A DNA stretch of 57,625 nucleotides, counting the filler, from Jimgerdemannia flammicorona (lineage: Eukaryota): the NCBI GenBank assembly GCA_003990765.1. It is 2 parts of 2 records of this genome, joined end to end, with 100 filler letters (N's around TTAATTAATTAA, not from the genome) between each part and the next. Parts side by side here need not be neighbours in the genome. Positions count along the whole stretch, not along the records: positions 1 to 28,766 come from RBNJ01000542.1; 1 more part is not named here. One strand, written 5' to 3'. The notes beneath the pieces are model-generated. The model did no database searches. It saw only the letters and a program-made list of their open reading frames with translations, and had not been told where the DNA came from. Shown here piece by piece: positions 5,847-48,909 of this stretch (position 1 is the stretch's first letter; each line of letters begins with the position of its first letter). The translations under genes and the position numbers were made by a program.

Positions 5847-6198
5847 TGAGGGTTTTTTCTTTGCCTGTCATTCTCTTTGGGGTGGCAGAGGCTATTCTAT
5901 TCAGCTCAGATATGGCTTTGTACATATGATGGAGTCTTGGGTATGTACTTTTGGTCATTGGCATATGGCTGAGTTTCCTCTGATGATAGGAAGAGCATGG
6001 TGTGCAGAATGAGATGCAGGCCACTATAGACCCTGCTGTGCCTGGTATGGTTGAGCTGCTGGATAATAGCTAGCCTAGATTAATGGGGGAGCAGTGCTTG
6101 ATGAGTGGTAGGGGAGGGTTTTGGTCTATATAGTCTAGTTTCCCTTCAAATAAAAATCTATAAGACTCTGAGTCAATAAAACAAAAAAAAAAAAAAAA
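5847..6198 (+). mobile_element. 3' part of the ~1.18-kb non-autonomous poly(A) retroposon (copy D), apparently interrupted by LINE copy 1
   Basis: Colinear with ~28428-28766 (gagggttttttctttgcctgtc...aataaaaatc...gagtc + poly(A) at 6183-6198). Confidence 0.85.
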
Positions 6199-15052: not shown

Positions 15053-15437
15053 AGATAGATTGAGAACAAACTGTATTTTACTATGAACAGTACAACCAAC
15101 ATTTTTTCTTTGAACGTGAATGGGCTGAGGGGCGTGGTTCGACGCAGGAACATTTTTATTTGGTTGAAGGGATTGGACGCTGATCTCTTCCTCTTGCAGG
15201 ATGTCAGGTGTGAGGATGACACTGATAGGATGGAATCGACTAAAGAATGGGGTGGTATGGCGACTTAGAACAGCAAGGTCAGGATTCTGGTTCAGAAAGG
15301 CAGAGGGGAGATAAAGGATGTGAGGAGCTGGGGGGAGAGACTGGTCTGGGGTGAGTGGATTCATGCAGGTTGGGAGCCAGTCACCGTTGGCTCCTGTTAC
15401 TGCCCTGCTGTGTGGGGGGAGCGTGTGGATTGGGTGA

Positions 15438-18400
15438 TCTCTTTCCAATACCATTCAGGTTATACAACCTTTGGAGGGCACTTTCAACATCGTTTTCAGC
15501 AAAAAGAGACTAACAACATGACAACCGACAGACAACCTGAGGTGCATACTGGGCAGGGTGGCCCAAGTGCTTTCGACTGGCAGCAGGTGGGGAGAGGTCC
15601 AGGTCTGGGGGGAGGTATGAGGGGCCTGCTGGCAGGTGGATGTGGAAGGGGTGGAGGAGGTGGTGGAGGATCAGGATCTGGGAGGGCAAGCTTTGTGGAG
15701 ATGGTGAAGGGGAGACAGCAGGTGTCAGGGCTAGAGGGCTGGCTGAGGAAGGGCAAGGAGACCGAGAAGGCGACAGTGCCAGGGGGTGCAGCCCTTGGAA
15801 GGGGGGGCGGTGGAGCTGTGGGAGTAGTGGCTAGGGGGGGTGTGACTGCTGATGGTGTTGGGACTGTCGATCTGGAAAAAAATCCAGATGTGATGGCTGA
15901 TGGCAAGGCTGAGCGGCTGAGGCTTAGAAGACAAGGGGACTTAGCAGATGGTGTAACAGGTCTGGTGGTGGCCCCGTTACTCAAGAAATCGATTTCGGCA
16001 TTTGTGGTCACACTGTGCTTCCGGGGCCTGGTGGTGACAGCAAAAATGGTGCTGGGGCTCATCGCTAAGCAGGTGGCGGGTGCAGCATCTGTGAAGTTTT
16101 TGAAGGGACTGGAAGGAGTGGAGGTGGGTTTTGAGGAGGTGGCACTGCTGGAGGAGGCGCTGAAGGTTGGATTGGTGGTTGGGGAGGTATGCATCCCAAT
16201 GGTGTGGTGCCTGAAGTGGGACCCCAGGGTGGTCCAACTGCTGGTGAAAGGAGTGCCGATGGTGACAGCGATGGAGACAAGGAAGAGAGTTGAGAATTTC
16301 ATGGCAGAATATGGCAAGGTGGTGGATATTGGGTTCAGGGTCTGGGAGGGGACCTCGCTCAGGACTGGTAATGTGGATGTGAGAATTTGGCTGGCTGGGA
16401 AAGAAGCCACTGGGAAGGCACAGGATTGGCCTTCGGCGATGGTCTGGGGAGCGATCCTGTGTAAGGTGACAAGGGTGAAGGGGAGTGAGGAGGAGGAGGA
16501 GGACTTACTGGAAGCACTAAAAGAGCTGGGGGGTGCTGTGGAGAGGCGAGCAAAGGCTTGGGAGGCTTTTGAAGAGGCAACACACTTGGAGGTGGTGGAT
16601 GGAAAATGGATTCGAGTGACCAAGGAGTAGTGGGAAAGGGCTCAGGGGCATAAGAGGCAGAAGGAGCTGCTGGCCAAGCTGGATAGCAGACCACTGGGGG
16701 AGGCAAGCAAGGTGAAGGGCACAGGGGGAGCTGAAGCAAGTGTCTGGGCTGGCGAGGGGGAGGGGAAGGACAAGAAGGAGGCGGGGGAGGACAAGAAGAA
16801 GGCTGGAAAGGACCCATATGCAGATGGTACACTGGAGGTGTGGGAGGAGGACTGGGTGGGCTCCTCTACCCCTACCTCTCTCATCAGGCATGGCCCGGCC
16901 TCCCGGAATAGGGTGGTGGAAGATGTACCAATGCAAGGGGCCCAGAGGGTGCAATTCGGAGTACCAGAGGTTGCATATGGGGGACAGGTAGTGGCGGCTG
17001 GCAAGGAGGAACTGGTGGATGTCCCGGAAGTATGGGATGAGTCTGCGAGTGCTAGAGCTGACACCACGATGTTGGATGGAGGGAGGCCAGCAACTCTGGG
17101 GGGGAAAGAGGTGGGGAACTTGCTTTGGATGTGCCGGATGATGAATAACCTAGTGGCGGAAGAGTTGGGGGAAGTGGACTTGCGAGTGATGAGTGATGAG
17201 CATTGGGCAGGAATACTGCAGGGGGGTGGCATAATGAAGGCATTGAAGGCGGAAATTCTTGCAGTATATCTGGAGGAGGAAGGGTATGAGGTGGATAAGG
17301 AGAGGGAGGAGGAGATGGCAGTCGTTGCTGGAGAAAAGGCTGAATACTGCTGGAACAAGCGACATGGACTACAGCTCTGGCAGGAAGTATGTATTGAATA
17401 CCAAGAGGAGTTTGAGGAGAAGGCCGATGGAGAGATGAATGAGCTGCTGGCTGGATTGGAGGCTCAGAGGGCCGAAGAGGAGGAGGTGGCTGTGGAACAT
17501 AATTTGGACAAGGCACAGGAGGAGATGAGCATAGAGCAGTAGGGGCTGATTGACAACATCATATATATCATCAATATGAACAGTACAACCAACATTTTCT
17601 CTTTGAACATGAATGGGTTACGGGGTGCTTCTCAACATAGGAACATTTTTACTTGGATGAAGGGATTGGAGGCCGATCTCTTCCTCTTGCAGGATGTCCA
17701 GTGTGAAGATGACTCTGATAGGTTAGAATGGACGAAGGAATGGGGAGGTGAAGCGATTTGGAAGGGCAAGGTTGGGATTTTGATTAGGAAAGGCAGAGGG
17801 GAGATACAGAATGTGTGGTGCTGGGGAGAGAGACTGATCTGGGGAGAGTGCATTCGGGCAGGCTGGGAGCCAGTTACGGTTGGCTCCTGCTACTGCCCTG
17901 CGGTACGGGGTAAGAGGGTAGATTGGGTAAAAGGCTTACAGGAGAGTGGATTACTTGCGGAGGCTGGGGTGGATGTGCTCAGGAGAGATTTCAATATGGT
18001 TCGAGATATACTGTTGGATAGAACAGATGGAGGATGAGGTGCTGAGAGCAGGAGTGGAGGGCTGGTGGCATGGGAGGAAGTAGAAAGGCTAAGTGCACTA
18101 TTGGATGCTGGGAGGGAGTGCTGGGGGAGTAGGAGGGTCTATACACATTGGGCAGGGGGTCTGGGGACTAGAATTGACTGGATTTTGACAGCCTGCTGCT
18201 GGGGACTAGATGTTTGGAAATCATTGGAGGTGGAATGGTGTCCATGGTCGGATCACTGGGGGCTCTTGGGACAGGGGTGCTTTGGGGGAAGTGGGGATGG
18301 GCCTGGACATTGGTGCCTCAATTCCTCTTTGTTAGATGATAAGACCCGGTGGGATGAGTGGGCTAAAGACATTCAACTGAGGGTGGAGAACTGGAGGCAG

Positions 18401-21307
18401 GAAGGGGCTGCAGTTGGGACTCGGTGGATGAGGATGAAGGAAATGGCCAGGATTTACTGGAAGGAGGCTGGCAAGGAGGCAGGGAAGCAGCAGAAACAAA
18501 GAGTGCGCTGGGCCTCTGCTAGATTGACGAGACTCCTGGAGGAGTGGGCAAGGCTGATGATGTTGGAGGGAGAAGAAGATTGGAGATTAATGAGGGCGAA
18601 ACTGGAGGTTGGGGAACTTCAACAGGTGCTGCGGGAGGAGGAAGAGGCAAGAGTACAGGGCTTGGCAGCACGTCTTTGCTGGCAGGATCTGGAGGAAGAA
18701 GAGAGGCCTTCCAAGCTTCTTACAAAGGCCCTTAGGGTGAGGCAGGTCCAGCAATGGTGGGAAGGGGTATTGGACTCTGATGGTGTACTGGTGCATGGTG
18801 TACAGGATGTTCTTGGATTGCTGAAGGAGAGATGGAGTAGATTGTGGAGTAAGGAGGAGGGTGGGGCAGATGCTGCTACTATTGCACAATCATTAGAGGA
18901 TTGGCACCCACCACAAGTCGAAGAGCTAGGGGACCTGGTGATGCCTGTACAGGAGGATGAGATCCACCATGTTCTTGCTGTGACAACATTCAGTATGGCA
19001 CCTGGGGAAGATGGTCTGCCCTGGGACTTTTTGGAAGCAAATGGTTGAAGTCCCAGGGGTGATGGGAGAGATGACAGTGTTGTGTGACCTTATTCTACAG
19101 ACTGGAAGGTGGGTGGGGGAGCAGGACCTTGGGCTGGTGACACTGCTCTACAAAAACAAAGGAAGGCAGGAGGATTGAAGAACTGGCGACTGATTATGCT
19201 GCTAGATATGGACAGAAAGTTGGTAACTAAGGTGGTGGTGGCGAGACTACAGAAGATGGCCCAGCAAGTCGTGGGTGTTGAGCAGAGGGGATTTGTGGGT
19301 GGTCGGCTCATCAGGGATGGCACTGCCTGGGTGTATGGTATTATCGAAGGGGCAAGGGCCTGTGGACTGGATGGGCATCTAGTTTTCTTAGACCAGGAGA
19401 AGGCATATGACTGGGTGCGAAGAGTCTGGCTGGAGAAAGTCTTGGATAGAATGGAGGTACCGCATCATTTCTGGTCAATAATGATCAGCCTACTGGAAGG
19501 GAGTAGGGCTGCACTCACATGTAATGGACATAGAGGGGTAGCATTCCCCTTGGGAAGGGGGGTGCCCCAGGGGGATCCATTGTCCCCCATTTTGTATGCT
19601 CTTTCCCTGGAACCGCTTATGGACCGAATTAGGTGGAGGATAGTGGGGCTCTCTGTCTTTGGCATAGGATGGAAGGTTGGGGCCTTTGCTGACGACATGG
19701 TGGTGGGTTTGGGTTCGATTGCTGATGTGGAGGAGCTCAAGAGGACTGTGGAGTAGTATGAGGAGTATTCTGGAGCTAGGCTGAATTGGCATAAGTGTGA
19801 GATGATGGTGCTCGATAATGGTCTGGTGGGAGGGGAAGTTATAGGAACAATTGTCCCCACTGGTGAAGCAGTGTGGTACTTAGGTGTCTACTTGTCAGTC
19901 TATGGGTCAGTTCTGCCCAAGCTTTGGTGGGAGCAGAGGATTGGAATCTGGGAGGAGGCTCTGTGGAGTTGGGGGGGAAGACATTTTTCTCTGGCAGGGC
20001 AGATCTCGATTTTGAATGTCTACTGGCTGCCAAAGTTGTGGTACCTGGTGTATCATCTGGACTTCCCAGCCTGGGTAGTGAAGAGATTGATGAAGTCGGT
20101 GAAGGGATGGATTTGGGCTGGCAGGCGGAGTCAAATTAATTGGGAGACCTTGTTCCTACCAGTGGCAAGAGACAGTCTTAGGCTGATTGACTTCCCAAAA
20201 TGGTTACACTGCTTGAGAGCATGGTGGCTGAAGAGGGTGGTGGAGTTGAGAGGACGTGGATGGGTTCCTCTGTTACAGAAGCTATGGGAGAGGCGGGTAT
20301 TGCCAAGGGGCTCAACTGGTGATCTCCTCTCCTTGGTTGGGCTTCAGAACACTGCCCAACTATAATATAAAGGATTTTGGTGGGGAATAGCTGAAGGAGT
20401 GCACCGCATTGGTATTGGTTGGCAGGGGAATGAAGGTGAGGAGGATTGGGACCCGGTGATGTGGAGATGGGACCGTATACTGCTGGGTGGTGCTCCTTTA
20501 GCTGAGTTCGACATTGGTGATGGAATGGAATACCAAAGGGGACCAGGCCAGGATCTGTGGCCTAGCGGTTGGCAAGGAGTTGGAATTGGCGAAGAGTGGA
20601 ACTGGCATGGTGTTTGGACCTGGAGTGTTGCAGTGAGAGCATGGCTGCCACCAAAGTACTGGGTGGTCTGGTGGTGCATGCTGCAGAGGAATGTTATGCT
20701 TAATTTTCGCTCAGGGCACCTTGTTGTAGGGGGTTGCTTCGACTGTGAGGAGTGCCATAATGTGGGGCATGAGGGGGGTTACGTACAGATGCCAGAACAT
20801 TGGCTAAGAGAGTGTGAGGTGTTGGGGGATTTTTGGCGGACAATTGGGGATCGCTTAGGGGTACGGGGTAGGAGTGATGAAGTACAGGGGCGATGGGAGG
20901 ACTTGAGGGATAGATTGGTAGGGGGGATAGGGAAGGAGTGGCTTACTTTAGGTTGGGCTTTGGCTATATAGGTGGGGCTGGCTAGTCATTGGCTTTTTGT
21001 TTTTGAGGATGGGAGGAGACAGAGCTTGGGGGACCGGCTGATGCGATGGCATAGGCTTTTGGAAGACACCTTAACAGGCTGGTGGCTGGGTTGGGGGATG
21101 CGGGGTGGTCGGAGGTGCCGCATGGTAGAGAAAATCTGTGGGCAAAGTGGGGGGAGAGTGGGGGTAGTTGGTGAAAGGGTGATCTTCATTCGTGAGGAAG
21201 TAGGAAGGGGCCCCCCTGTGGGGATTGGATAGTGGGTCGGAATGTTGTATATTTATTCATAGACTGGTAATAAAGGTGGAGTCCAAGAGACTATAAAAAA
21301 AAAAAAA
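15438..21307 (+). mobile_element. L1/Tx1-clade LINE, inner full-length copy (~5.87 kb)
   Basis: 20-bp TSD ggagc(g/a)tgtggattgggtga at 15418-15437 and 21308-21327. AATAAA at ~21269 and A13 tail at 21295-21307. ORF1 spans ~15519-17542 and ORF2 17576-21232. Confidence 0.97.
17576..21232 (+). pseudogene. LINE ORF2: APE endonuclease + reverse transcriptase + C-terminal Cys/His motif (disrupted)
   Basis: EN motifs: SLNMNGL, LLQD, DFN, RIDWIL, WSDH. RT motifs: PGEDGLP, KNWRLIMLLDMDRKL, QRGFVGGR, LDQEKAYD, GVPQGDPLSP, AFADD. C-terminal CFDCEEC...EHWLREC. Several stops and frameshifts. Confidence 0.95.
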
Positions 21308-24300
21308 GGAGCATGTGGATTGGGTGAAAGGGCTTCTGGAGAGTGGGATCCTTGCTGAAGCTGGGTTGGATATGCTTGGAGGAGATTTTAATATGGTTCG
21401 GGACATATGGCTGGATAGAACTGATGGAGGATGGGGTGCGGAGAGCAGGAGTGGGGGATTAGCGATGTGGGAGGAGGTTGAAAGGCTAGGAGCACTGGTG
21501 GATGTGGTAGGGAGCACTGGGGGGACAGGAGGGTATATACACATTGGGCTGGAGGTCTGGGGACAAGGATTGACTGGATTCTGATGGCCGACTGTTGGGG
21601 CTGCGATGTTTGGAAGGGGTTAGAGGTCGAATGGTGTCCGTGGTCAGATCACTGGGGCCTCTTGGGACAGGGGTGTTTTGGGGGAAGTAGAGATGGGCCT
21701 GGACATTGGCGCCTGAATTCTTCCTTGTTGGATGATGAGGCCCGGTGAGAGGAGTGGGCAAAAGACATTCAGCTGAAGGTGGCGAATTGGTGGCAGGAAG
21801 GGGCCACGATTGGGGTTCGGTGGATGAGGATAAAAGAGATGGCCAGGATATATTGGAGCGAAGCTGGCAGAGTGGCTGGGAAGCAGCGAAGGCAGAAAGT
21901 GTGTTGGGCTTCTACTAGATTGGCTAGGCTCCAGGAGGAGTGGGCAAGACTGGTAGCAGTAGAGGGAGAAGAGGATTGGAGAATAATGAGGGTGAGGATG
22001 GAGGTTGGAGAACTGCAACAGGTGCTGCGGGATGAGGAAGAGTCAAGGGTGCAAGGCCTGGTGGCACGGCTTCATTGGCAGGGGCTGGAGGAAGGGGAGA
22101 GGCCTTCCAAGTTTCTCACAAGGACACTTCATGTGAGAAGGGTACAGCAGTGGTGGGAAGGGGTACTTGACTCGGATGATTTACTAGTGCATGGTGTACA
22201 GGACATCCTTGGAACACTGAAGGCATGATGGAGTGGATTGTAGAGTGAGGAGGAGGGTGGGGTGGATGCTACAGCCATTGACCAAACATTAGAAGATTGG
22301 CACCCACCACAAGCTGAGGGACTAGGTGATCTGGTGATGCCTGTAAAAGAGGACGAGATCCATCAGGTTCTTGCCGCGACAGCCTCGGGTATGGCGCCTG
22401 GGGAGGATGGCCTCCCCTGGGACTTCTGGAAGCAAATGGTTGGAGTCCCGGGCATATTGGGGGAGTTGACAGCACTGTGTGACTCTATATTGCAGTCAGG
22501 GAGATGGGTGGGGGAGCAAGACCTTGGGCTGGTGACGCTGCTTTATAAGAACAAGGGAAGGCGAGAGGATTGGAAGAATTGGTAGCCGATAATGTTGCTA
22601 GATATGGACAGGAAGTTGGTGACTAAGGTGGTGGTCGCAAGGCTACAGAAGGTAGTCCAGCAAATTGTGGGTGTTGAGCAGAGGGGCTTCATAGGGGGTC
22701 GGCTTATTAGAGACGGCACAGCCTGGGTACATGGAGTTATTGAAGGTGCTCGAGCATGTGGACTAGATGGGCATCTTGTCTTCTTGGACCAATAAAGAAA
22801 TGGGGAGGTGAGGTGGTTTGAAAAGGCAAGGTTGGGATTCTGGTATGGAAAGGCAGAGGGGAGATAAGGGATATACAGAGCTGGGGGATAGTTTGGTCTG
22901 GGGTGAGTGGATTCATTTGGGTTGGGAGCCAGGTACAGTGGGCTCTTATTACTGCTCCACAGTGTAGGGCAAGTGGGTGGATTGGGTGAAGGGCCTTCAG
23001 GAGAGTGCGATCTTACAGAGACTGGGGTGGATATACTGGGTGGAGACTACAATATAGTCTGAGATATACTGTTGGACAGAACAGATAGAGGATGGGGAGC
23101 TGAGGGTCAGAGTGGTGGACTGGCAGTATGGGAGGAAGTGGAGAGGCTGAGTGCTCTGGTGGATGTGGATAGGGAGTACTGGGGGGATAGGAGGGTATAT
23201 ACACATTGGGCAGGGGGCTTGGGAACAAGGATTGATTGGATTCTGATGGCCAGCTGCTGGGGCTTAGATGTTTGGAAGACACTGGAGATGGAATGGTGTC
23301 TTTGGTCAGATCACTGGAGGTTTTTAGGATAGGGGCAATTTGGGTGGAGTGGGGATGGGCCTGGACATTAGTGCCTCAATTCCTCCTTATTAGATGATAA
23401 TATCTGGTGAGATGAGTGGGCTGCAGACATTTAACTGAGGGTAGAGGACTGGAGATGAGAAGGTGCCCAAGTTGGTGTTCAGTGGATATAGATGAAAGAG
23501 ATGGCCAGGACCTACTGATGTGAGGCTGGTAAGGAGGCTGGGAAACAGTAGAGGAGATGGATGAGGTGGGCTTCTAGTAGACTGTCTAGACTCTTAGAGG
23601 ATTGGGTGAGCCTGGTGACATTGGAGGAGGAGGAGAATTGGAGATCAATGAGGGCAAAAAAGGAGGTTGGTAAACTACAACAGATATTGCGGGAGGAGGA
23701 AGAGGCAAAGGTGTAAAGCTTGGCAGCATGGCTCCATTGGCAGAGTTTGGAAGAAGGAGAGAGATCCTCAAAGTATCTCATGAGAGCCCTTCAGGTGAGA
23801 AGGGTGCAGCAGAGATGGGAGGGGGTGCTTGACTCTGATGGTATACTGGTGCATAGTATACATAACATTCTTGGATCTTTAAAGGAGCATTGGAGTGGTT
23901 TGTGAAGTGAGGAGGAGGGAGGGGTGGATGCTGATATCATTGGCCAAACATTAGAGGATTGGCACCCCCTGCAAGTAGATATGGTGGGAGACTTAGTGCT
24001 GTCTATACAAGAAGAGGAGATCTACCAGGTTCTTGCCACCACATCACCAGGTACAGCAACCAGAGAGGATGGTTTGCCCTGAGACTTCTGGAAGAAGATG
24101 GTTGGGATCCCAGTGGTACTAGGTGAGATGATGGCACTGTATGACTTTATTCTACAGACAGAGAAATGGGTGGGAGAATAGGATCTGAGGTTGGTGAATT
24201 TGCTTTATAAGAACAAAGGAAGGAGAGAGGACTGGAAGAACTGGAGACCAATTATGCTGCTAGATATGGACAGAAAGTTGGTTACTAAGGTGGTGGTCGC

Positions 24301-26699
24301 AAGGCTACAAAAGGTGACCCAGCAAGTCTTGGGCATTGAGCAGAGGGGTTCTGTAGGAGGCCAGCTCATTAGGGATGGCACAGCCTGGATGTATGGGGTT
24401 ATTGAAGGGGCGCAAGCTTGTAGATTAGATGGGTGCCTGGTCTTTTTGGACCAAGAGAAGGCTTATGACTGGGTGAGGTGAGTCTGGCTAGTGAAAGTAT
24501 TGGACAGAATTAGGGTTCCCTGCCAGTTCTGGTCAGCTATGATCAGCCTACTAGAAGGGAGTAGGGCTGTGCTCATGTGTAATGGACATAGAGGGGTAGC
24601 ATTTCCCCTAGGTAGGGGGTGCCCCAGGGGGACTCATTGTCCCCCATTCTGTATGCTCTTTCACTGGAACCCTTAATGGACAGAATCAGATGGAAGATAG
24701 TAGGGCTCTCCATTTTTGGCATTGGGTGGAAAGTAGGGGCCTTTGCAGATAATAAGATGGTCGGACTAGGATTGATTGCTGATATCGAGGAGCTTAAGGA
24801 GTCAGTGGAGTGGTATGAGGAGATCTCTGGGGTGAAGCTTAATTGGCATAAGTGTGAAACGATGGTGTTATGCAATGGTCTGGTGGGAGGGGAGGTTATT
24901 GGAACAATCATCCCTGCTGGTGAAGCTATGCAGTACTTGGGTATCTATCTATCAGTATATGGGTCAGTTCTACTCAGGCTTTGGTGGGAGCAGCAGGTTG
25001 AAATTTGGGGGGAGGCCCTGCAGAGTTGGGGGGACCATCAATTGTCCCTGGCAGGGCAGGTCTCGATTTTGAACATCTACTGGCTGCCAAAGTTGTGGTA
25101 TCTGGCTTATCATCTGGACTTCTCAGCCTAGGTGGTGAAGAGATTGATTAAGCTGGCCAAGAGATGGATCTGGACTGGAAGATGGAGTCAGATCAGCTGG
25201 GAGGTCTTGTCATTACTGGTGGAGAGTAGTGGACTTGGACTGGTTGACTTTCCAAAGAGGCTACACTGCTTGAGAGCATGGTGGCTGAAGAGAGCTGTAG
25301 AGTTGAGAGGGGGAGATTGGGTTCCCCTACTGCAGAAGGTCTGGGAGATGAGGTCCTTGCTGCAAGGCTCAACGGGAGATCTCCTATCTTTGGTTGGACT
25401 TAGGAATACTGAACAATTGTGATATAAAGGCTTCTGGTGGGGGGTGGCAGATGGGGTGCACCACATTGGATTCATTGGCAAGGAAATGAAGGAGAGGTGG
25501 ATTGGGGCCTGGCAATGTAGAGATGGGACCAGGTGCTGCTGGGTGGAGTTCCCTTACTCGAGTTCGACATTAGTAATGAGATAAAATGCCAGAGGAGACC
25601 AGGCCAGGATCTGTGGCCCAGTGGTTGGAAAGGTGTTGAAATCGGCAAAGATTGGGCCTGGCACAGCATTTGGGCCTGGAGTGCTGAGGTGAAGAGATGG
25701 ATGCCACAGAAGTACTGGGTGACTTGGTGGTACATGCTGAGAAGAAATGTAATGCTCAACTACCACTCAGGTCACCTTATTGAGGAAGGTTGCTTTGACT
25801 GTGAGGAATGCTATAATGTAGAAATGGAAGGAGAATATATGCAGATGCCTGAATATTGGCTTGGAGAGTGCAAGGTACTTAGTGACTTTTGGCAGACTGT
25901 TGGGATTCATTTGGGAGTAGGATACAGGGGAGGTGGCATGTGGGGGTGGTGGGAAGATTTGAGGAATAGACTGGTGGGGGGGGTGGGAAAGGAATGGCTC
26001 ACATTGGGCTGGGCTCTGGCCATATGGGTGGGGCTGGTCAGTCACTGGCTATTTGTTTTTGAGGATGGGAGGAGGCTGGGCTTGGGGGTCTGGCTGCTGT
26101 GGTGGCATAGCCTTATGGAAGACATCTTGACAGGCTGGTGGCTTGGTTGGGGGTTGCAGGGTGGTCAGAGGTATCGATTGGTATAGGCAGAGTGGGGGAA
26201 GGGTTGGAGTAGTGAGTGAGAAGGTGGTCTTTGTTCAGGAAGGAGTGAGGAGAGGCTCCCCTATGGGGATTGGGTAGTGGGAGGATATATTGTAAACTTA
26301 TTAATAGACTGTTAATAAATATTAGAGTCCAAGTGACTATAAAAAAAAAAAAGACAATGAGATAGACATAACCATTATCCATCTTGTTTCCCATTGCCCA
26401 TCTCATCTCCTACACCTGTCTTGTCTCTCATCTCCCATTACCTGTCTCATCTCCCATCACATATCTCCCATCATCTGTCTCATCTCCTATTACCTGTCTT
26501 GTCTCCTATTACCAATTTTGTCTTATCTCCCATCACTCTAATATCTCCCATTACCTGTCCCATCACTTATCTCAGAAAAATATATATATTATATACCTTC
26601 AATTTATAAGATATCAAAGAAAGATTGTTGACAATATTGACAGATAAATGATATTATAGTTGATTTAGAAATAAAATATAGATGTGACCTTGAATTATC

Positions 26700-27405
26700 T
26701 GAGTTTGAAGTGTAGTTTGAAGTGCAGTTTGAAGCATAGTTTGAAGTATAGTTTGAAGTGCAGTTTGTAATATAGTTTGAAGTACAGCTAAAGTTTGAAG
26801 TGCAGTTTAAAGTGCAGTTTGAAGTGCAGCTTGAAGTGTAGCTTTAAGTGAGGCTTATAGTATATAGCTTAAGGTATACTTTTGGTGATTAATTTGGCAA
26901 TAGTAAACACAATTTAAGGCCACTTTTGATGATTGATTTAAAGCCACTTGAGGCAAAGGTAAATATAATTTAAGGCCACTTTTGGTAATTGATTTAAGAC
27001 TACATGAAGGATACTTCAAACTGTACTTCAAACCATACTTTTCAAACCGCACTTCAAACTGTACTTCAAACTGCACTTCAAACTATACTTCAAACCATAC
27101 TTCAAACTGTACTTATATAATTTTGACTCTCCTTTACCATTAATTACCAAAATTGTTCCCCTTTGCTGAATTCACAAAGGTGAAGGGGAATTTGGCAAAG
27201 GTAAATATGATTTAAGACCACTTTTGGTAATTGATTTAAGTACTTGAAGGGGACTTCAAACTGCACTTCAATCACACTTTTCAAACTATACTTCAAACTG
27301 CACTTCAAACTGCACTTCAAACTATACTTCAAACTACACTTCAAACCATACTTCAAACTGCACTTCAAACCATACTTCAAACTACACTTTCAAAACTATA
27401 CTTAT
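26700..27405. repeat. 12-bp tandem repeats (ttcaaactgcac) in opposing orientations, interleaved with 66-bp-family units
   Basis: (gtttgaagtgca)n at ~26702-26850; (ttcaaactgcac)n at ~27013-27112 and ~27254-27400. Confidence 0.9.
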
Positions 27406-27588: not shown

Positions 27589-28766
27589 TGCTCCTTTCTC
27601 TGCTACCTTACTGGTCACAAGGTTTGGTAGGCGACCTTCCAAGTCCCCTTTCCCCTAATATTACCCCCTCTACCTCAGGTTAGTTTGCTGTGCCTGCAGG
27701 GGCATGGTGGGAGGAGGGCAATAGTGATGAGTTGCCCCTTTATTGGTGTCGGATCAGTGCTTCCTCCACTTTTTTGCAGATTCTGGTGCCTTCAGCTGCA
27801 TCTGGGGTGTACCTGTTTTGGTGTGGCGCCTTCTTCCTTTTGCCGTTGCCAACAAGGAGTTGTCTTGGTGTGTCTCGGGCTACGTAGGGAGTTGGCCAAC
27901 CTTGGGCATCAAGTGCTCAGTGTAGGTTACCTGCAGGTCCTTGGTGCCTGTGGTGGGGCCCTCTGGCTTTGGCGAGCTTCCCGGCGAGCATGGTTCTGGC
28001 ATAGGTGACTGCTTTTCAGGTGTTATTGGGATGGGAAGGGAGATGGCCATCACAGATAGGCAGAAGGGCGGTTACAGTGAACCAGTAGGGTGCCAGGCTG
28101 GGGGCAGTCATCGGGGCTGGGGCAGATGCTGCTTTGGTGGGGCCTTTTGATTGGTGCAGCGTGGTTAGGTGGTAGGTGTCACTATCGGCGTCTTTTGGCG
28201 GTCAGCAGGGTTGGGCCCCAGTCGTCAGAGGGGGTTAGGAGGCCCAAGGCTACCCATTTCAGGCATCTTGACTGCACTCAACTGGAACCGGGAGCTGACA
28301 CAGCAACATGATCAAGGCCCACAGGCTTGAGTAGTGGGGTATTGGGGGTTTTCTCCCACCTCATGTGTAAGTTCTTTACTCACCTCGACTGGGAGAACCA
28401 GGCCCTACCCACCATGTTGTGCTTTGATGAGAGTTTTTTATTTGCCTGTTATTCTCTTTGGGGTGGCAGGGGCTATTCTATTTGGCTTGGGCATGGCCTT
28501 GTACATATGTTGGGTTCTCAGGCATGCGCTTTCGGTTGTTGGTGTATGGTTGGGTTTCCCCTAGTGGTAGGGAGAGCATGGTGTGCAGAATGAGGTGCAG
28601 GCTTATCAGCCCTGCTGCGCCTGGCATGGTCAAGCTGCTGGACAATAGCTAGTCTAGGTTAATGGGGGGGCAGTGCTTGGTGGATGGTGGGGGAGGGTTT
28701 TGGCCTATATAGTCTAGGTTCCCTTCCAATAAAAATCCGCGGGATATGAGTCCGTAAAACAAAAAA
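27589..28766 (+). mobile_element. ~1.18-kb non-autonomous poly(A) retroposon (copy A)
   Basis: Colinear along its whole length with the reverse complements of 35584-36774 and 41650-42870. It ends AATAAAAATCC...GAGTCC + A-tail running into the gap. No long ORF. Confidence 0.85.
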
Positions 28767-28866
28767 NNNNNNNNNNNNNNNNNNNNNNNNNNNNNNNNNN
28801 NNNNNNNNNNTTAATTAATTAANNNNNNNNNNNNNNNNNNNNNNNNNNNNNNNNNNNNNNNNNNNN
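28767..28866. other. Artificial 100-bp gap/linker (N44-TTAATTAATTAA-N44)
   Basis: Symmetric N runs surround a palindromic 12-mer that provides stop codons in all six frames. Confidence 0.95.
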
Positions 28867-29035: not shown

Positions 29036-32000
29036 CACCTTTCACTGGTAATATTCAGGTGACACAAGACTCAGGCAATACTTTCAACAACGTTTTTGGT
29101 GAAAGGTGACTAGCAACATGGAATGCAATGAACATGCAGGTGCACATACTAGGTCGGGTGGACCTAGGGCCTTCGACTGGCAGCAGGTGGGGAGGGGTTA
29201 CGGCTTTGGGATGGGGGCCTTCGGAGGGCCTAAGAGTGGAGAAGGCTCTGGAGGGAGACTGGTGTCTGGTGGCAATGGGGGAAGGTCTAGTCTCCTGAGC
29301 TTTGCAGACAAGGTTAAGGAGAGTGGATGGCTGGCTGATACTAGGGCTGGTGCTGCTGAGGGGAAGGGCAAGGCAAGCCTTGGGAAGGGGGGTAGTGCTC
29401 TGGCTGGGAGTGTAGGCATAGGGGCTGGAGGAGCAGTGGCTGGGGGTGTGACTGTTGATGGGAGTGTGATGGAGAATCAGGAAAAAAAAAGAGATGTGAT
29501 GGCTGATGGCCAGGTGGGGCAGAGACTCCCAATGCAGAAGGGGGACCTGACAGATGGTGTAATGGGGCTGGCAGTGACCCCATTGCTCAAGAAGTCAATC
29601 TCAGAGTTCACAGTGACCTTGTGCTTCCAGGGCTTGGCAGTGATAGCAAGGATGGTTCTGGGGCTTGTTTCGAAGCAGGTGGCTGGGGCAGCCTCGGTGA
29701 AGTTCTTGAAGGGTCTAGAGGGGGTCAAGGTGGGCTTTGAGGAGGCAGGCCCACTGGATGAGGTACTGAAGACTGGAGTCATGGTTGGGGAGGTGGTGGT
29801 CTCCATGGTGAGGTGCTTGTGATGGGACCCCAGGGTGGTGCAACTTCTGGTGAAGGGAGTGTCCACAGTGACTAAGGAGGAGACTAGAAAGAGGGTGGAG
29901 GAGGTGATGATTGAGTATGGTGATGTGGTGGACATCAGCTTTCAGGTGTAGGAGGGAACAATGATCAGGATAGGTGATGTTGATGTCAGGATTAGACTGG
30001 TGGGCAAGGAGGCCATGGGGAAGGCAAGTGACTGGCCTTCTGTGCTGATGTGGGGGGCATTCATATGTAAGGTGTCAAGGGTGAAGGAGAGTGAGGAGGA
30101 GGAGGAGGACTTGTTGGAGGTGCTGGAAGAGATGAGTGGAGCTGTAGAGAGGAGGACAAGGGCCTGGAAGATGTATGAGGAGTCAACACATCTGGAGGTT
30201 GTAGAGGGGAAGCATATCCGCATGGACAAGGGGCAGTGGGAGTAGGCACAGGGGCACAGAAGGCAGAGGGAGCTACTGGCGAGTATGACAGTAGAGGTGA
30301 AGAAGAAGGCAGTTGGGGCTGAGGTATCTGGGGGCATCAAAGCCAGTGTCTGGGCTAGTAAAGGGGTAGGGGAGGTGGAGGTAGGCAAGGAAGAAGATGG
30401 GAAGATGCTGAGCAAGGACCCTTTTGCTGATGGCACCTTCGAGGTCTGGGAGCCAGAATTGGATTCCACCCCCCCCCCTCTGATCAGGAGGGGCCCAGCT
30501 GCAAAGAGAAGGACAACAGAGGGTATGCTGATGCAGGGGGCCCAGCGAGTGTGTTTTGGAGTCCCTGATGTAGCAAAAGGGGGCCAGGTGGTGGTGGCTG
30601 GTGAAGATGAGCTAGTGGATGTATCTGAGGAGGAGTGGGATGAGACTGCCAGTGTGGGTGCTGATATCATGATGTTGGATGCAGGATGGTCTGGGACTCT
30701 GGGAGGGAAGGAGGTAGGAAACTTGCTGTGGATGAGCAAGGTGATGGATAACCTTGTGGCTGATACATTGGGAGAAGTGGACCTGTGGATTATGTCTGAG
30801 GAGCATTGGGAATGGATTCTGCATGGTGATGGAGTGGTGGAGGCGCTGAGGGGGGAGATTCTTGCAATTCTCTTAAAGGAGGAGAGATATGAGGTCGATA
30901 AGGTGAGGAAGGCAGAGCTGGTGGTGGTTGTGGGCAAGCAGGCAACCTACTGTTGGGCTGAGTGTCATGGTTTGCAGCTCTGGAGAGAGGCCTGTCTGGA
31001 GTATCAAGAGGACTTTGAGGAGAGGGAAGATGAGGTGATGGTAGAACTTCTGGGAGGGTTGGAGACATGGGAAGCTGGGGAAAGGGAACTAGCTGCTGAA
31101 TGTGAATTGGACTTGGTGCAGGAGGAGCAGAATGTAGACTTGTAGAGGATGGGATCACTTTTTAACATTATTTCTTATGAACAGTACAACTAACATTTTC
31201 TCTCTGAATGTGAATGGGTTGAGGGGTTCTGGATAGTGTAAGAACATTTTTACTTGGCTCAAGGGATTGGAGGCTGATCTCTTTTTACTATAGGATGTTT
31301 GGTGTGAGGATGAGGATGATCGAGTGCAGTGGACTAAGGAATGGGGTGGGGCTACTGCTTGGTTTGGAAAAGTGGCGATTCTGGTGAGGAAGGATAGAGG
31401 TGACTTGGAGGGAATCAGGAGCTGGGGTGACCACTTGGTCTGGGGTGATTGGCAGCAGCCAGGGTGGGAGTCAGTGAGGGTTGGCTCTTGCTACTGCCCT
31501 GCAGTTAGGGGTGAAAGGATTGCATAGATTGAGGAGCTGCTGGAGGAGCATGTTCTCTTGGTGGAAGGGGTCGATGTATTTGGGGGGGACTTTAATATGG
31601 TTCGGGATCAGCATCTAGACCGCACTGATGGTGGGAGGAGTACGGGAGGGAGAAGTGGAGGCCTGGATGCATGGGAGGAGGTAGAGTGGCTGAGCTCCTT
31701 AGGGGATATGGGCAGAACATGATGGGGCAACTCCAGGGTCTACATGCATTGAGTGAATGACTTAGGTACTAAGATTGACTGGATTCTGATGGCGGAATAC
31801 TGGGGGTCTGATGTCTGGAAGGTATTGGAGGTGGAATGGTGCCCATGGTCTGATCACTGGGGACTGTTGAGATAGGGGCAGTTTGGGGGGAGTGGAGATG
31901 GACCCAGATATTGGTGCCTTAACTCCTTCCTGCTGGCTGAGAAGGGGTTGTGGGATTTGTGGGCAGAGAACATTCAGGCAAAAGTTTCTTACTGGAGGTA

Positions 32001-32217
32001 TGAGGGTTTGTCAGTGGGTGTCCATTGGATGAGATTGAAAGAGGCTGTGAGGGTCTATTGGAGAGAGGCTGGGAGAGAAGCTGGGAGACAGAGGAGGAAG
32101 TGAACAAGGTGTGCTTCCAGCAGGCTGAGGAGATTGCAAATGGATTGGGCAGGTTTGCTTACTTCTGGTGGAGTGGAGGATTGGAGGTTAGCAAGGATTA
32201 AATTGGAGATAATGGAA
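29036..32217 (+). mobile_element. Divergent subfamily of the same LINE; 5'-complete, truncated after the endonuclease
   Basis: Starts cacctttcactggtaatattcaggtgacac. ORF1 homolog at 29119-31145. ORF2 starts MNSTTNIFSLNVNGL at ~31178 and includes GGDFN, KIDWIL and WSDH. It ends abruptly before RT. Confidence 0.9.
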
Positions 32218-34454: not shown

Positions 34455-34865
34455 TCTCAAGGTTAAGAAGTTTCACCCTAAAGCTAAGATCCTAGAATAT
34501 AAGACTGAAGGAGCCATAAGAATGGACCTTGCCAGCATTTAAGATACTATCCTTGAACTACAAACCACTACTCTACTTGGTACTGGAATTGGAGTCAAGT
34601 TGTCAGAAAACCATACCAGAATTATCAAGACCAGGAGTAGTCTGACCAAAAGTGAAATCTCAGTTAAAGGAGGAGTAATTGACCCTGATTATACTGGCAA
34701 GATCTTCCTTATAGTCAGGAATCACAACCCCATCACCCCATTTGAAGTCAAGAAGCATGACAGGATTGGCCAGATGCTGATCCACGAAATCAAGAAGCCC
34801 AAGATCACTGAAGCCATTGAACTCATCAAGATAAAGAGAGAGAACAAGGCTTTGGATCTACTGGA
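34455..34865 (+). pseudogene. Trimeric dUTPase domain within Gypsy pol
   Basis: Motifs MDL, GTGIGV, TRSSL, GGVIDPDYTG, DRIGQM, and (frameshifted) GFGSTG. Confidence 0.9.
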
Positions 34866-35583
34866 AGAGGAGCCTATGCTGTCACCAAGATTACTAAACT
34901 TGAGCACAAGAAAGATAAGGACCAGAACAAGCACACATATACCATTGGAGAAAACTTTCCTCTAGAAGAACAACTTCTCAAGATCCTGCATCAGAATAAA
35001 GAAGTACTTACTATAGACTTCAGAGATATCCACAATCAAGAACCCAAGTACTACTATAAAGTTAACACTAGTGATATCAAGCCCATCTACCAGAAAGCCA
35101 GACCTATACCACTTGCCTATAGAGAATAGTTGTGAGCAGAACTCAAGAAAATAGAAGAAGCTGGAATTATTAAACAAGCTATCAGTCTCTGGGCTTCACC
35201 CATTATCCATGCCCCAAAGAAAGGAAGCAAGCCTAGAGAGTTTGCCCCAAGACTCTGCATTAACTACAGGAAGCTCAATACAATCACCAAGAAGAATAGG
35301 CAGCCCTTGCCAAATATTCAAGAAATCCTTACCATCTTTGGAAGCAAAGCCAAATACTACACCACCTTGGATCTATTCTCAGGCTTCTATCAGATTTACA
35401 TATCTCATTCAAGATGTCAGTGAGAAATCAGCCTTCATTATATCTGATGCCACCTATATCTACCTATGAATGCCATTTGGAATGTGCAATACCCCAGCAA
35501 GTTTTCAGCAAATGATGAACAGAGTCTTCAGCAATGAGATCAGAAAATAGTTCTTTATCTATATTGATGATATGATCATCTTC

Positions 35584-36774
35584 TTTTTTTTTTTTTTTTT
35601 TTTTTAATGGACTCATGTCCCGCGGATTTTTATTGGAAGGGAACCTAGACTATATAGGCCAAAACCCTCCCCCACCACCCACCAAGCACTGCCACCCCAT
35701 TAACCTAGACTAGTTATTGTCCAGCAGCTCGACTATGCCAGGTGCAGCAGGGCCAATTAGGCCTGCACTTCATTCTGCACACCATGCTCTCCCTACCACC
35801 AGGGGAAACCCAATCATATGCCAATGACTGAAAGCACACATCTGAGAACCCAACGTATATACAAGGCCATGCCCGAGCTGAATAGAATAGCCCCTGCCAC
35901 CCCAAAGAGAATGACAGACAAAGAAAAAACCCTCATCAAAGCACAACATGGTGGGTAGGGCCTGGTTCTCCCAGTTGAGATGAGTAAAGGACTTATATGT
36001 GAGGTGGGAGGAAACCCCCAATACCCCACTACTCAAGCCTGTGGGCCTTGATCACATTGCCATGTCAGCTCCTAGTTCCAGTTGAGTACAGCCAAGATGC
36101 CTGAAATGGGTAGCCTCGGGCCTTCCGACCCCCTCTGATGAGTGGGGCCCAACCCTGCTGACTGCCAAAAGAAGCTGATAGTGACACCTACCACCTAACC
36201 ACACTACACCAATCAAAAGGCCCCACTGAAGCAGCACCTGCCCCAGTCCCAATGACCACCCCCAGCCTAGCACCCTACTGGTTCACCATTATCACCCTTC
36301 CTCCTATCTGTGACGGCCATCTCCCCTCCCATCCTGACAACATCTGATAAGCAGTCACCTATGCCAGAACCGCGCTCACTGGGAAGCTCACCAAAGCCAG
36401 AGAGCCCCACTACAGGCACCGAGGACCTGCAGGTAACCTACACTGAGCACTTGATGCCCAAGGTCAGCCGACTCCCTATGTAGCCTGAGACACACTGAGA
36501 CAATACCTTATTGGCAATGGCAAAAGGAAGAAGGTGCTGCACTAAAATGGGTATACCCCAGATGCAGCCGAAGGCACCAGAATCTGCAAAAAAGTGGAGG
36601 AAGCACTAATTCAACACTGATAAAGGGGCAACTCATCACCATTGCCCTCCTCCCACCATGCCCCTGCAGGCACAGCAAACCAACCTGAGATAGAGGGGGT
36701 AATAATAGGGGAAAGGGGACTCAGAAGGTTGTCTACCAAACCTTGTGACCAGTAAGGTAGTGGAGAAAGGAGCA
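35584..36774 (-). mobile_element. ~1.18-kb non-autonomous poly(A) retroposon (copy B)
   Basis: Poly(T) at ~35585-35605. 17-bp TSD atgat(a/g)tgatcatc(t/c)tc at 35567-35583 and 36775-36791. It interrupts the Gypsy RT at the YIDD motif. Confidence 0.92.
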
Positions 36775-39700
36775 ATGATGTGATCATCCTCAGAAACACT
36801 GCATTGGAACATGTCAACCATATACAACTAGCCCTCAAGAAGCTCAAGGAGCATAGTGTCTACATCAAGCTCAAGAAGTGTAAGTTTGTAGCTCAGATAA
36901 TTACCTATCTAGGACACATCATCAACCAGACTGGAATTCACACAGACTCTATAAAGATTGAGACTGTTATAGCCTACCTAAGACCCAGAACAACCACAGA
37001 AGTCTATGCCTTCCTTGGACTGGCCTCCTACTACAGAAGATTCATCAAAGGATACTCTAATATTATAGCACCTATCTATGAGCTACTGAAGAAGGAGACT
37101 AAATTCAAATGGACCAAGGAATACCAAGAAACCTCCAATGAACTCAAGACTAGGTTGACCCAAGTACCCATTCTCAGAAGACCAGATTGGAACCTAGAGT
37201 TCATTCTGCAGACAGATGCAAGTACTATAGGACTTGGAGCAGTCCTAGCTTAGAAGAAAGATGGATATAAATATCTCATCTCCTATGCAAGCCAAGGTAT
37301 CCATAGAGCAAAACAGAACTATGAGTCATGTAAGCTTAAATGCTTAGCAGTAGTTTGGACAGTAGATAAGTTCTACTACTACCTAGCCAAGAAACACTTC
37401 ACTATTCAAACAGATCATTCTGCTCTTGCCTGACTATTCCACACTCTGAACCCTAAAGGAATATATACCAAATAAATCTACAGACTGCAAGAGTATAACT
37501 ATACTATCAAGTACTACTCAGGAAGAATTAATGCCAATACTGATATACTCTTAAGAATACTCTGAAATACTCCCATTAAGACTATTCAATATGAATAAGG
37601 AGTTATACTGTGGATTAATCAGCTACTATGGGCAGCAGAAGATGTCCAACTACCTTGAACCCTGGACAATCACTATCATCAACCAGACTGGGAAATAGTT
37701 TGAACTAGACAATATCATACTCAGAAAACATAATACCTGAATATAAGAAGTATTAAGTAATGAAGAAAGTATACAAACAAGAATACTTAGGAGGAATCAA
37801 CACATATAATAAGGCAAAAAGAACTATGTGGTGACCCAAGATAGAAGAAGACCTGTGCCAATTTGTCAAAGGATGTGACAAGTACCAAAAACAGAAACAA
37901 GATCAGCAAGACTAGGTATCCAGGTCATCAAAAACTGAGCCTATCTCCTTCCACTACATGGCAATAGATATCATTGAGCCACTACCAGTAATACTATCAG
38001 AAAACTGCTATATTATAGTTATTATAGACCTCTTTACTAAATAGATAGAAGCAGAAGCATTACAAAAAGCCAATATCCTCTCTATAGCCGACTTCATATA
38101 CTGAGAAATCATCTGCTACTACAAGACACCAAAGCAAATCACTACAGACCATGGCACAGAATTTGTCAATGGATTCAACAAGATAATGTATCAGAAATAC
38201 AAGATTCAGCACATCAAGACCACTATGTACCACTCTCAAGGAAATGGACAGACAGAGAGAACCAACAAGATCCTCAAGAATATCCTGACAAAGACCTCAG
38301 ACATATATGAGAATTGGGACAACTCCCTCCCAACTGCCATCTCTGTCCTATAAGACATATGGTCACAGAGTATACACTTTACTCCAAGAGAACTGCTCTT
38401 CAGAGAAGAAGATTCTGATGGAACCTCAGCCATAAATCTAAACCTAACTTGGAGATAGGTTGACTCAGAAATCTGGAGACTATATCAAATCAGGAAGAAG
38501 GCTGAAGATTACATCATCAAGTCACAAGCACTGATAAGAAAGAATGCAAAAAGAATCACAAGACCCTAGAACTTATCCAAATTGGAGAAAAGGTCCTACT
38601 GTATTGAAATATAGTAGAAGCCTCATGGTTGCAAAAACTGGAGTCCAAATGGGAAGGACCCTTCTATGTACAAGATATCAAAAGAACTACCTTCTGGCTT
38701 AGAAAACTCTCAGAGACCATACTGCCTACCATAGTATACAGGAACAGACTCAAGAAGTACCATGAACCTATATAAGAGAAGTAAAATATAATGACCACCC
38801 ATGAGGTTCTAGTCTGTGAATTATAACAGCATGTCTCATGACTAGCAGGTAATCTGTCTGGATCATTCTCTAAGGGATATGGTATCAGCAACTACTCATC
38901 TATGAAACTTTCAAAGCCAGAGGAGTTTGAACTGTCAACTGATTGATCAAGATCAGAATCAGGCCCTTGCTCTATATGAAGAGAGCAACTCTTCACCATC
39001 ATGTCAAAATACATAGAGAAGATACTAGCCCATAAATACCACTTTTTGACCCCCTGCCAGAGGTTATGGGATCAGCAAATTTTTCAGAACTAGACCAATA
39101 AATAAGGACATTCAAGAAGATTCTTATTCAGGAGGAAGATGTAACAGTGACTTCAGAATGATGATATCAGCACAAGAGACAGCTCTTTCTTACAAGCCAC
39201 TAGATCAGAGCATAAGAAGATTATACAGTATAACTCACTCAGGCTACAAGATGAGTAATGGTAATCAACTGTGAGTCATTGGGACCATAATACAAACATC
39301 TTGAGGAATATAAAAGAAGAATCAAGGAACTGCAGTAGCAGCAACTCAACAAGACCTACTAATTCCAAATTAGCTCAAAGACTTATCATAAATGAAATGC
39401 CTGCTGTCTACCAAATCTCAAGATCAAGAAACTACCAAGATCTCTCAGTCTAGGAAAGGATGTTCCAAGATATCTGAAGAGCCATAAGAATCCACACCAC
39501 AAGGACTCCTAATGTCAACCTGAGTACTGGTGACCCTTATCATTATATCCTCTACTGCCACAAGATGGAAACAAGAATCACCATACTACTAAATGCCTCC
39601 AGGTATAGCAAGAATACAAAATAGGAAACCTCCCCTACTAGAAATTCCTTCAAGCCAGTCCTCAAGAGCTATAAGATACCACTCTCATAGATATATGTAA

Positions 39701-40689: not shown

Positions 40690-41643
40690 GTATAAGGCTG
40701 GCCCAGAGACTAGTAGAGAATTAGATGATCCTATTGTCTGAGAGTTCCCAAAATATATTCCTTCTTAAATATCTTTAAGTAATGGGGTATTCTATAAGAT
40801 TTCTGTCAGATGGATATTGTATTTTCTGTATTTATACTATAGTAATATAATAGATTATGTAGCAGATTGCCATAGTCTATGATAAAGATATTCTGATATT
40901 TATGAAGGAGTTCTATGAGTTGCTGCTGTTATTAAAGGGTCAATTCTTCTCCAATATTAGTGGAAGGCTTTACTTTCTCCTGGATTACAGAAAGGCCTTT
41001 TTTTTCTTCTGAGATCTTCTACTATTTTCTGATAGATTTAGTTAATAAACTTCTCTATATATCTAATTAAAGTAGAGTACTAGATGACTTATGATGGTTT
41101 CTTTCAGTAGAATGAGGTTTCTCCAGCCTTGATTGGTTGCTCAAGAGTGCATAGGGTTTATCTTATCAGAAAATATAGTTCTTCTATATCCAGATTTTTG
41201 ATATCCTTACTAGATTTAAAGAAGAGATTTCTAGAATCAGGTGGAGCAAAGATTTCAAAGATGGTCTGCCCTCCTAGTTCTAGGATAAAGTTCTTATATA
41301 GTTTGACTGATTAGCAGTATACTTACAAAGAAGTATCTCTCTTAAAGTAGTTGACCTGGAGGGGATGTACTTCTTTTTTATCTAAACTTCTAAATTCTTT
41401 AGTTTGTCTTGTACTTTGAGTCAGTTTAGGGACCTCTTGTAGTTGGGGAGTCTTGACCTTCATGAAGATTGCTTGAATAATCTTTTGTCCTTTATAGATT
41501 CAGATTTATTCTATACTGCCATTTTTCAAAATAACCTTAATTTTGTCTATATATCTAGAGTCTATTATTTCTCCTTCTATAGTTATTCCTTATTAGCAAG
41601 TCTAGATATTGAGATTAATTAAATGTAAGTTTCTTTGGATAAC

Positions 41644-41680
<37 letters not shown>

Positions 41681-48301: not shown

Positions 48302-48335
<34 letters not shown>

Positions 48336-48602
48336 ACCGTAGAATTGCCCAATGTTGGTGGATGCGATATGTGCGTTTTTCTATATTCCCAGTCATTTCC
48401 GTGCACTGTGGACAATTACAACGATATCGTGGGGTTGTGACTTGATGTATTAAGGCGAGAGTTTCCCCGCATACGCTTTGGATGTAACTACTGTCTGTTT
48501 CAGGTTTCAAGGCATTTTGCACCTCGCCCATATTCTTTGACATATACTGACTCGACCAATCACGCTCTTCCAACTATCCAACCGTTAAATATGCCCATTT
48601 TC

Positions 48603-48661
<59 letters not shown>

Positions 48662-48909
48662 CAACAACCAGTCGTCAGTCCCTTCCCTTGTTTCCTCTCC
48701 CAGTTTCCACTTTTTGTCCTCTCCTGCAAACTCTCCTACCCAAAGGGCACTCTCTGCGGATGTCTGTGGCACTACATAATATATATTATTATGATAGTCT
48801 AAAAAGAGTAATGACTGGTAAGTTAAGAATAAATAAATTAGTGTTCTATACGAACAGTTGGCGAACCGTATGGTGGGGTGAGGATCTTCCCTTCCTCATC
48901 AATTCCGAA

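Follow-up and report, generated by a model that had tools for sequence, protein, structure and literature searches.

A long non-coding retroposon family, probably of RNA polymerase II type and mobilised by a LINE, in the mucoromycete fungus Jimgerdemannia flammicorona

Jimgerdemannia flammicorona belongs to the Endogonales of the Mucoromycota, and a stretch of 57,625 nucleotides from its genome assembly (GCA_003990765.1; 'the window' below means the whole of this stretch as analysed) carries a repeated unit of about 1.17 kb which is probably a non-autonomous, non-coding retroposon of RNA polymerase II (Pol II) type, mobilised by a long interspersed nuclear element (LINE). A first-pass annotation of this DNA had noticed the unit and proposed an element of this kind; the observation was confirmed and the interpretation is supported, and the latter is strengthened by a LINE-like head of 33 nt at the 5′ end of the unit, which that annotation had missed. 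What we infer from these features is transcription of the element by Pol II, a promoter function of its head, and which LINE serves as the helper. Positions 28767–28866 of the window read N44-TTAATTAATTAA-N44, a synthetic joint, and the window is therefore two contigs (1–28766 and 28867–57625) joined artificially, with no adjacency in the genome implied. Both contigs break at A runs of retroposon tails.

A blastn search of the window with positions 27589–28766 as query returned exactly four copies, 82–90% identical, which is the number given in the first-pass annotation, and an all-against-all blastn of the window gave the identical set. The copies (c1 to c4) and their associated features are as follows.

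5847–6198, plus strand: copy c1, last ~340 nt and tail only, adjoining the 5′ end of a minus-strand LINE
27589–28766, plus strand: copy c2, full length, the blastn query; poly(A) tail cut by the contig end, N gap from 28767
28728–28733, plus strand: AATAAA of c2, ~30 nt before the tail, with an equivalent signal in c1, c3 and c4
35567–35583, minus strand: 3′ target-site duplication of c3, GAAGATGATCATATCAT, 17 bp
35584–36774, minus strand: copy c3, full length, 1,191 bp including a tail of ~23 A, lying in the reverse transcriptase (RT) of a Ty3/gypsy element, within the YIDD motif
36775–36791, minus strand: 5′ target-site duplication of c3, GAGGATGATCACATCAT, 17 bp
41638–41649, minus strand: 3′ target-site duplication of c4, TATATAGTTATC, 12 bp, a perfect match to the 5′ copy
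41650–42873, minus strand: copy c4, full length, canonical start at 42860
42874–42885, minus strand: 5′ target-site duplication of c4, TATATAGTTATC, 12 bp

Relative to c2, identity is 89.4% for c3 (blastn span 36774–35596, minus strand), 83.1% for c4 (42855–41675, minus strand) and 81.9% for c1 (5847–6188, plus strand, covering element positions 840–1178 only). Comparison of the 5′ ends rests on the three full-length copies, the starts of which lie within 13 nt of one another, bearing out the common 5′ start proposed for them earlier; in an alignment the three become alignable at one common point, TGCTCCTTTCTC. In c4 the canonical start (TGCC...) at 42860 is preceded by 13 extra bases (42873–42861). 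Target-site duplications were found in both of the testable copies, c2 being excluded from this test as its tail enters the N gap at 28767. The two copies of the 17-bp duplication around c3 match at 15 of 17 positions, both mismatches being transitions, and c4 is flanked by 12 bp. The earlier description of 15–17-bp duplications in two copies therefore stands as to the number of copies and the length in c3, but not as to c4, where the duplication is only 12 bp.

The boundaries of c3 are fixed because the copy and its duplication sit inside the YIDD motif of the Ty3/gypsy RT. Translation of the left flank ends ..FIYIDDMIIF (Pfam RVT_1 profile 111–159), and that of the right flank begins DVIIL.. 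(RVT_1 profile 155–205) and runs on into RNase H and integrase; as the gypsy RT sequence continues on both flanks, c3 is a clean insertion of 1,191 bp. The target, at 34501–39000, is a decayed Ty3/gypsy element with a dUTPase domain (Pfam 2.4e-16) before the RT in its pol region. Copy c1 adjoins the intact, canonical 5′ end of the minus-strand LINE at 1–5846, and no target-site duplication of its own was found for it; on these two grounds it is more likely to be a copy split by the LINE than a 5′-truncated insertion, and its other half would then lie past the start of the contig. Just upstream of c2, at 26690–27400, there are arrays of a 12-mer (AGTTTGAAGTGC-like) in opposite orientations around short unique segments, with the look of a foldback-like satellite.

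The four copies also agree at the 3′ end, where AATAAA is followed after about 28–34 nt by an A run in every case, so that the earlier description of this end (AATAAA, then poly(A)) holds for all of them. The tails, present in all four copies, are of at least 16–23 A; that of c4 reads A7-C-A15 and is followed by (TA)n.

The same window contains an L1-like LINE of about 5.87 kb, represented by the following copies, among them a candidate autonomous partner.

1–5846, minus strand: LINE copy with canonical 5′ end at 5846 and 3′ end at the contig start
12941–15436, plus strand: 5′ part of LINE copy B, with canonical 5′ end, used in the 5′-end matrix
15437–21307, plus strand: LINE copy C, full length, ORF1 followed by ORF2 with in-frame stops, 19-bp duplication; candidate autonomous partner
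29036–32186, plus strand: copy of a diverged LINE subfamily (~68–70% identical), with canonical 5′ end, used in the 5′-end matrix

Every LINE copy in the window carries stop codons, and the second open reading frame (ORF2) is interrupted by in-frame stops only. ORF2 matches Pfam RVT_1 at 6e-29 and, weakly (0.0028, under the Pfam cut-off), the apurinic/apyrimidinic (APE) endonuclease family Exo_endo_phos, and it aligns to residues 5–876 of human L1 ORF2p, the endonuclease-to-RT span, at 2e-30; an Atlas search did not yield a clade for the reverse transcriptase, and NCBIfam contributed nothing further on the LINE. The LINE 3′ end consists of AATAAA, 25–27 nt and poly(A), so that AATAAA lies 25–34 nt ahead of the A run in all four elements and in both complete LINE tails. 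LINE target-site duplications are of 19, 15 and 14 bp, and those of the element (17 and 12 bp) are similar in range. The signature of LINE-mediated insertion recognised in the first-pass annotation, target-site duplications (of 12 and 17 bp) together with poly(A), is present; in addition, an AATAAA lies about 30 nt upstream of the tail, and an L1-like LINE with duplications of 14–19 bp occurs in the same window.

Three of the L1-like LINE copies are nested at 10652–26367. LINE A (10667–12940 and 22806–26352, 15-bp duplication) contains LINE B (12941–15436 and 21308–22791, 14-bp duplication), which in turn contains LINE C (15437–21307, 19-bp duplication). A degenerate CTCATCTCCCAT-type tandem repeat lies on both sides of LINE A (26380–26570 and 10600–10666), so that LINE A landed in a satellite. 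LINE B, canonical at its 5′ end and flanked by the 14-bp duplication, nevertheless stops at about LINE position 3958 without poly(A); a 3′ truncation with a flanking duplication is unusual for target-primed reverse transcription, and 3′-truncated copies with an intact 5′ end therefore do arise here. The ORF1 region of LINE B includes an intact frame of 574 codons (13023–14747) which had no Pfam or NCBIfam match, placing the ORF1 protein outside the catalogued families. On the sense strand of the LINEs (1–5846, 10667–26352 and 29036–32186) the GC skew is extreme (+0.4 to +0.55), with G+C at about 50% in a background that goes down to 19–30%.

The element and the LINE begin alike. The LINE 5′ start reads CATCTTTCTCCrGTAmCAyTCrGGTTACACAA and that of the element TGCTCCTTTCTCyryTACCTTACTGGTCACAA. 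A 33-nt weight matrix was built from the four LINE 5′ termini alone and used to scan both strands of the window (114,922 positions). The four training sites took ranks 1–4, and the element heads took ranks 5 (c3), 6 (c2) and 8 (c4), with an unrelated site at rank 7. With the 5′ ends of the element placed in this way, the element appears to carry a LINE-like head of 33 nt, located as follows.

27591–27623, plus strand: LINE-like 33-nt head of c2, by weight matrix and alignment
36740–36772, minus strand: LINE-like head of c3, by weight matrix
42826–42858, minus strand: LINE-like head of c4, by weight matrix

In Drosophila, jockey and the I element have their internal promoters within roughly the first 30–40 nt, and a head of 33 nt would be of that size.

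Nothing in the unit suggests that it encodes a protein. Neither the copies themselves nor a deamination-corrected sequence have an open frame longer than 125 codons, which is below the mean of 140 (standard deviation 34) obtained with 300 composition-matched shuffles; the absence of a long frame had been noted in the first-pass annotation, and the CpG-corrected check that it called for leads to the same result. A Pfam search of the six frames of the element at E≤1 gave zero matches and so no remnant of a reverse transcriptase or endonuclease. Substitutions in the two longest frames are distributed over the codon positions as 37/31/22 and 17/18/14, without a third-position excess. The 125-residue frame has an Atlas recognition score of 943, a low value in the range of non-proteins, and Atlas returned no usable match for it.

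Classical short interspersed nuclear elements (SINEs) have a 5′ head derived from tRNA, 5S or 7SL RNA, carry internal A and B boxes and are typically shorter than ~600 bp. ARAGORN found 0 tRNA genes, and Rfam gave 0 matches in the window at the gathering score and 0 in the element even at E≤1. A and B boxes are not present in the head of the element; strict consensus patterns had no match, and those obtained with loose patterns are all far from the 5′ end. These three scans bear out the earlier statement that a tRNA, 5S or 7SL head and Pol III boxes are lacking. The sense strand of each full-length copy contains 7–10 runs of at least four T, and a T6 run is kept in all four copies; as internal T runs would stop RNA polymerase III (Pol III), transcription by this enzyme is unlikely. 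A classical Pol III SINE was accordingly rejected, given the lack of a tRNA or Rfam head and of boxes, the T runs inside the unit and its length of ~1,170 bp. A check for structured RNA had also been suggested; besides the empty Rfam result, folding of the body in 200-nt windows gave z-scores averaging −0.5 to +0.6 on both strands, which is no different from shuffles. No inverted or terminal repeats were found in the element, nor any internal repeats of note. A solo long terminal repeat or another transposon class was rejected in view of the lack of terminal repeats, the poly(A) 3′ end and the duplications of 12 and 17 bp.

Differences among the copies have the character of decay. Transitions outnumber transversions about 10:1 (112:9, 175:20 and 161:17), and 32–53% of inferred CpG sites are changed per copy as against 2–13% of sites in most other contexts. 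The observed/expected ratio of CpG is 0.08–0.29 in the three full-length copies, and c1 has zero CpG. In c4 the CpG decay is accompanied by raised change at two other dinucleotides, C-to-T at CpA (29%) and G-to-A at TpG (23%); this bias resembles that of repeat-induced point mutation and was not seen in c2 or c3.

The family extends beyond the window. When the 125-codon frame of c2 was searched exhaustively with HMMER, one match was a 93-aa protein, 78% identical, that is labelled 'hypothetical protein' and lies on a 903-bp contig; its best match within the window is 78%, and as it is not encoded there at least a fifth copy must exist outside. The other HMMER match of the 125-codon frame was a low-complexity repeat protein, and the 93-codon frame gave no candidate in the protein collection. 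A family-level description of Jimgerdemannia repeats was not found in the literature searched, nor in the accessible part of PMC11134847. Within that literature the family seems to be undescribed, although its kind is already known from other organisms.

These features suggest how the element might spread. A source copy would be transcribed from its own first base by Pol II, directed by an internal promoter in the first ~33 nt that would be common to the element and the resident L1-like LINE. The transcript would be cleaved and polyadenylated ~30 nt downstream of AATAAA, and the endonuclease and reverse transcriptase of the LINE would insert copies of this poly(A) RNA at new sites through target-primed reverse transcription, a process that would leave a genomic poly(A) tail and a target-site duplication of 12–17 bp. 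Once inserted, copies would decay mainly through C-to-T change at CpG. As to origin, we can only speculate that the element arose from a LINE remnant reduced to its head, transcription from which continued through the adjacent DNA up to a polyadenylation signal.

Several results weigh against this interpretation. By sensitive blastn or tblastx the 1.1-kb body resembles neither of the LINE subfamilies, nor is it similar to anything elsewhere in the window, and the likeness of the heads ends at nt 33 (a matrix of nt 34–58 ranks at 3–4% of positions, with 13 offsets tried). The matrix ranks of the three heads are effectively one observation, because the three belong to one family. When single heads were compared by local alignment with all 60-nt windows the LINE 5′ end came top for one of the three copies, the margin being 26 vs 24. 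At the 3′ end the only features common to element and LINE are AATAAA and the word GAGTCC, at differing offsets; an AATAAA/GAGTCC pattern matches the four element tails and the two complete LINE tails and nothing else in the window, but it was composed after the tails had been viewed and the test is circular. A 3′ hairpin shared by element and LINE was considered and rejected, as the stems are of 4 bp, their stability does not exceed that of shuffles and the common word falls in opposite arms. It should also be noted that the 93-aa protein is the sole outside copy that the protein searches returned.

The lack of similarity in the body also counts against one of the other explanations, namely that the unit derives by internal deletion from a LINE family outside the window and consists of the 5′ and 3′ untranslated regions (UTRs) with the coding part lost, as in RIME/ingi or NARTc/L1Tc. 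Such a derivative would have a head resembling LINE 5′ termini, as in the matrix, and a tail laid out as in the LINE (AATAAA, the GAGTCC word and poly(A)), and the coexistence in the window of LINE subfamilies 68–70% alike makes other LINE families plausible. We nevertheless consider it unlikely, since no RT or endonuclease remnant appears in the six frames, the UTRs of the LINE (5′ ~80 nt, 3′ ~320 nt) are far below 1.1 kb, and the composition of the sense strand differs, being G+T-rich in the element and showing positive GC skew and mostly positive AT skew in the LINE regions. The coding tests and the head bear likewise on the idea that the copies are processed pseudogenes, dead on arrival, of one highly expressed cellular Pol II transcript, either non-coding or decayed coding. 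A fixed 5′ end, AATAAA with poly(A), duplications and the absence of an ORF are what retrocopies of a host transcript look like. However, four copies in 57.5 kb at 10–18% pairwise divergence would be unusually dense for a single gene, the head resembles the 5′ terminus of the LINE itself, no protein-family remnant was detected (Pfam, six frames) and protein searches return only another copy of the element; nor is a parent locus visible in the window. This origin is in our judgement improbable. 5′ truncation is common among LINE insertions, and c1 keeps only the last ~340 nt, which would suit ordinary 5′-truncated tails of a LINE outside the window. The breaks would then have to coincide by chance, whereas all three full-length copies start within 13 nt of one another and at a head like a LINE transcription start; the unit shows no remnant of coding sequence upstream, and c1, adjoining an intact LINE 5′ end without a duplication of its own, looks interrupted rather than truncated, so that truncated tails are a very improbable explanation.

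A non-autonomous retroposon of Pol II type that depends on a LINE would resemble several known systems; we liken it to Eg-R1, Sadhu and NARTc/RIME by mode of working, the comparison being by description and not by sequence. In humans, SVA and Alu are non-coding poly(A) RNAs copied in trans by L1 ORF2p, with duplications of variable length. The Jimgerdemannia element is like them in being non-coding, in ending in poly(A) and in having duplications of variable length. Alu is a Pol III, 7SL-derived element and SVA a composite of Alu-like, variable-number-tandem-repeat and retroviral parts, and to our knowledge neither carries the 5′ head of L1. By analogy, the closest fungal precedent is Eg-R1 (EGRT1) of Blumeria graminis, described in the accessible part of its report as SINE-like, about 670 bp long and with a transcript of Pol II type, its first 88 nt being highly similar to the Blumeria non-LTR (non-long-terminal-repeat) element NonLTR-5_BG (bioRxiv 10.1101/242271). 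Judged by the same portion of that report, the two elements have in common that they are fungal and non-autonomous, lack A and B boxes, and have internal poly(T), AAUAAA and duplications; they differ in length (~670 bp for Eg-R1 and ~1,170 bp here) and in their tails, genomic insertions of Eg-R1 being reported without poly(A) whereas the Jimgerdemannia copies have tails of at least 16–23 A (bioRxiv 10.1101/242271). The host of Eg-R1 is moreover an ascomycete and that of the present element a mucoromycete.

Sadhu of Arabidopsis, to which the first-pass annotation had likened the unit, is a comparison that we also draw: it is a non-autonomous retroposon with target sites that fit LINE mobilisation (PMC2848041). 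Sadhu is a plant family, and a 5′ head shared with a LINE is not reported for it in the available portion of PMC2848041. In trypanosomes, as described in the sections available, the first 77 nt are common to the partners in NARTc/L1Tc and RIME/ingi, and this head, Pr77, is an internal Pol II-dependent promoter (PMC1874656, PMC3383444, PMC8190864). The Pr77 head also contains a ribozyme like that of hepatitis delta virus, and NARTc and RIME are truncated LINEs; in Jimgerdemannia the shared stretch is ~33 nt without an Rfam ribozyme match, and the element has a body unrelated to the LINE of the window. Fungal SINEs related to tRNA or 5S RNA, such as the AfuSINE families, are given in the accessible text as LINE-mobilised with short flanking direct repeats (PMC5063351). 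They are short and have heads derived from Pol III genes, neither of which is a property of the Jimgerdemannia element.

Two further features of the window lie apart from the element and the LINEs. At 51949–52827 there is an ORF for a PL1 pectate lyase, 99% identical to a J. flammicorona protein, the closest matches of which outside the genus are mostly from Streptomyces, with several from other fungi. At 48304–48659, runs of T31 and A55 surround a unique segment of 270 bp, and an ORF starting at 48688 follows just downstream.

As the principle has precedents in Blumeria, trypanosomes, plants and mammals, the finding adds to a known kind of element and does not open a new one. More than 77% of the J. 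flammicorona genome can be repeats, according to the part of PMC10386755 available, and curation of this non-autonomous family, with its head, tail and helper specified, would benefit both the masking of repeats and the calling of genes: one copy of the element, at the least, has already been annotated as a 'hypothetical protein'. The 33-nt head, common to autonomous and non-autonomous elements, is a candidate internal promoter of a LINE from an early-diverging fungus, short enough to be tested directly. We put forward with some hesitation the bolder possibility that this is the first described LINE-dependent, long non-coding retroposon of Pol II type from an early-diverging fungus (Mucoromycota), formed when about 1.1 kb of unrelated DNA was captured by a LINE remnant of which only the 33-nt head was left. 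If this capture did take place, the head would mark a minimal internal LINE promoter and the family would make up a sizeable part of a repeat-rich genome.

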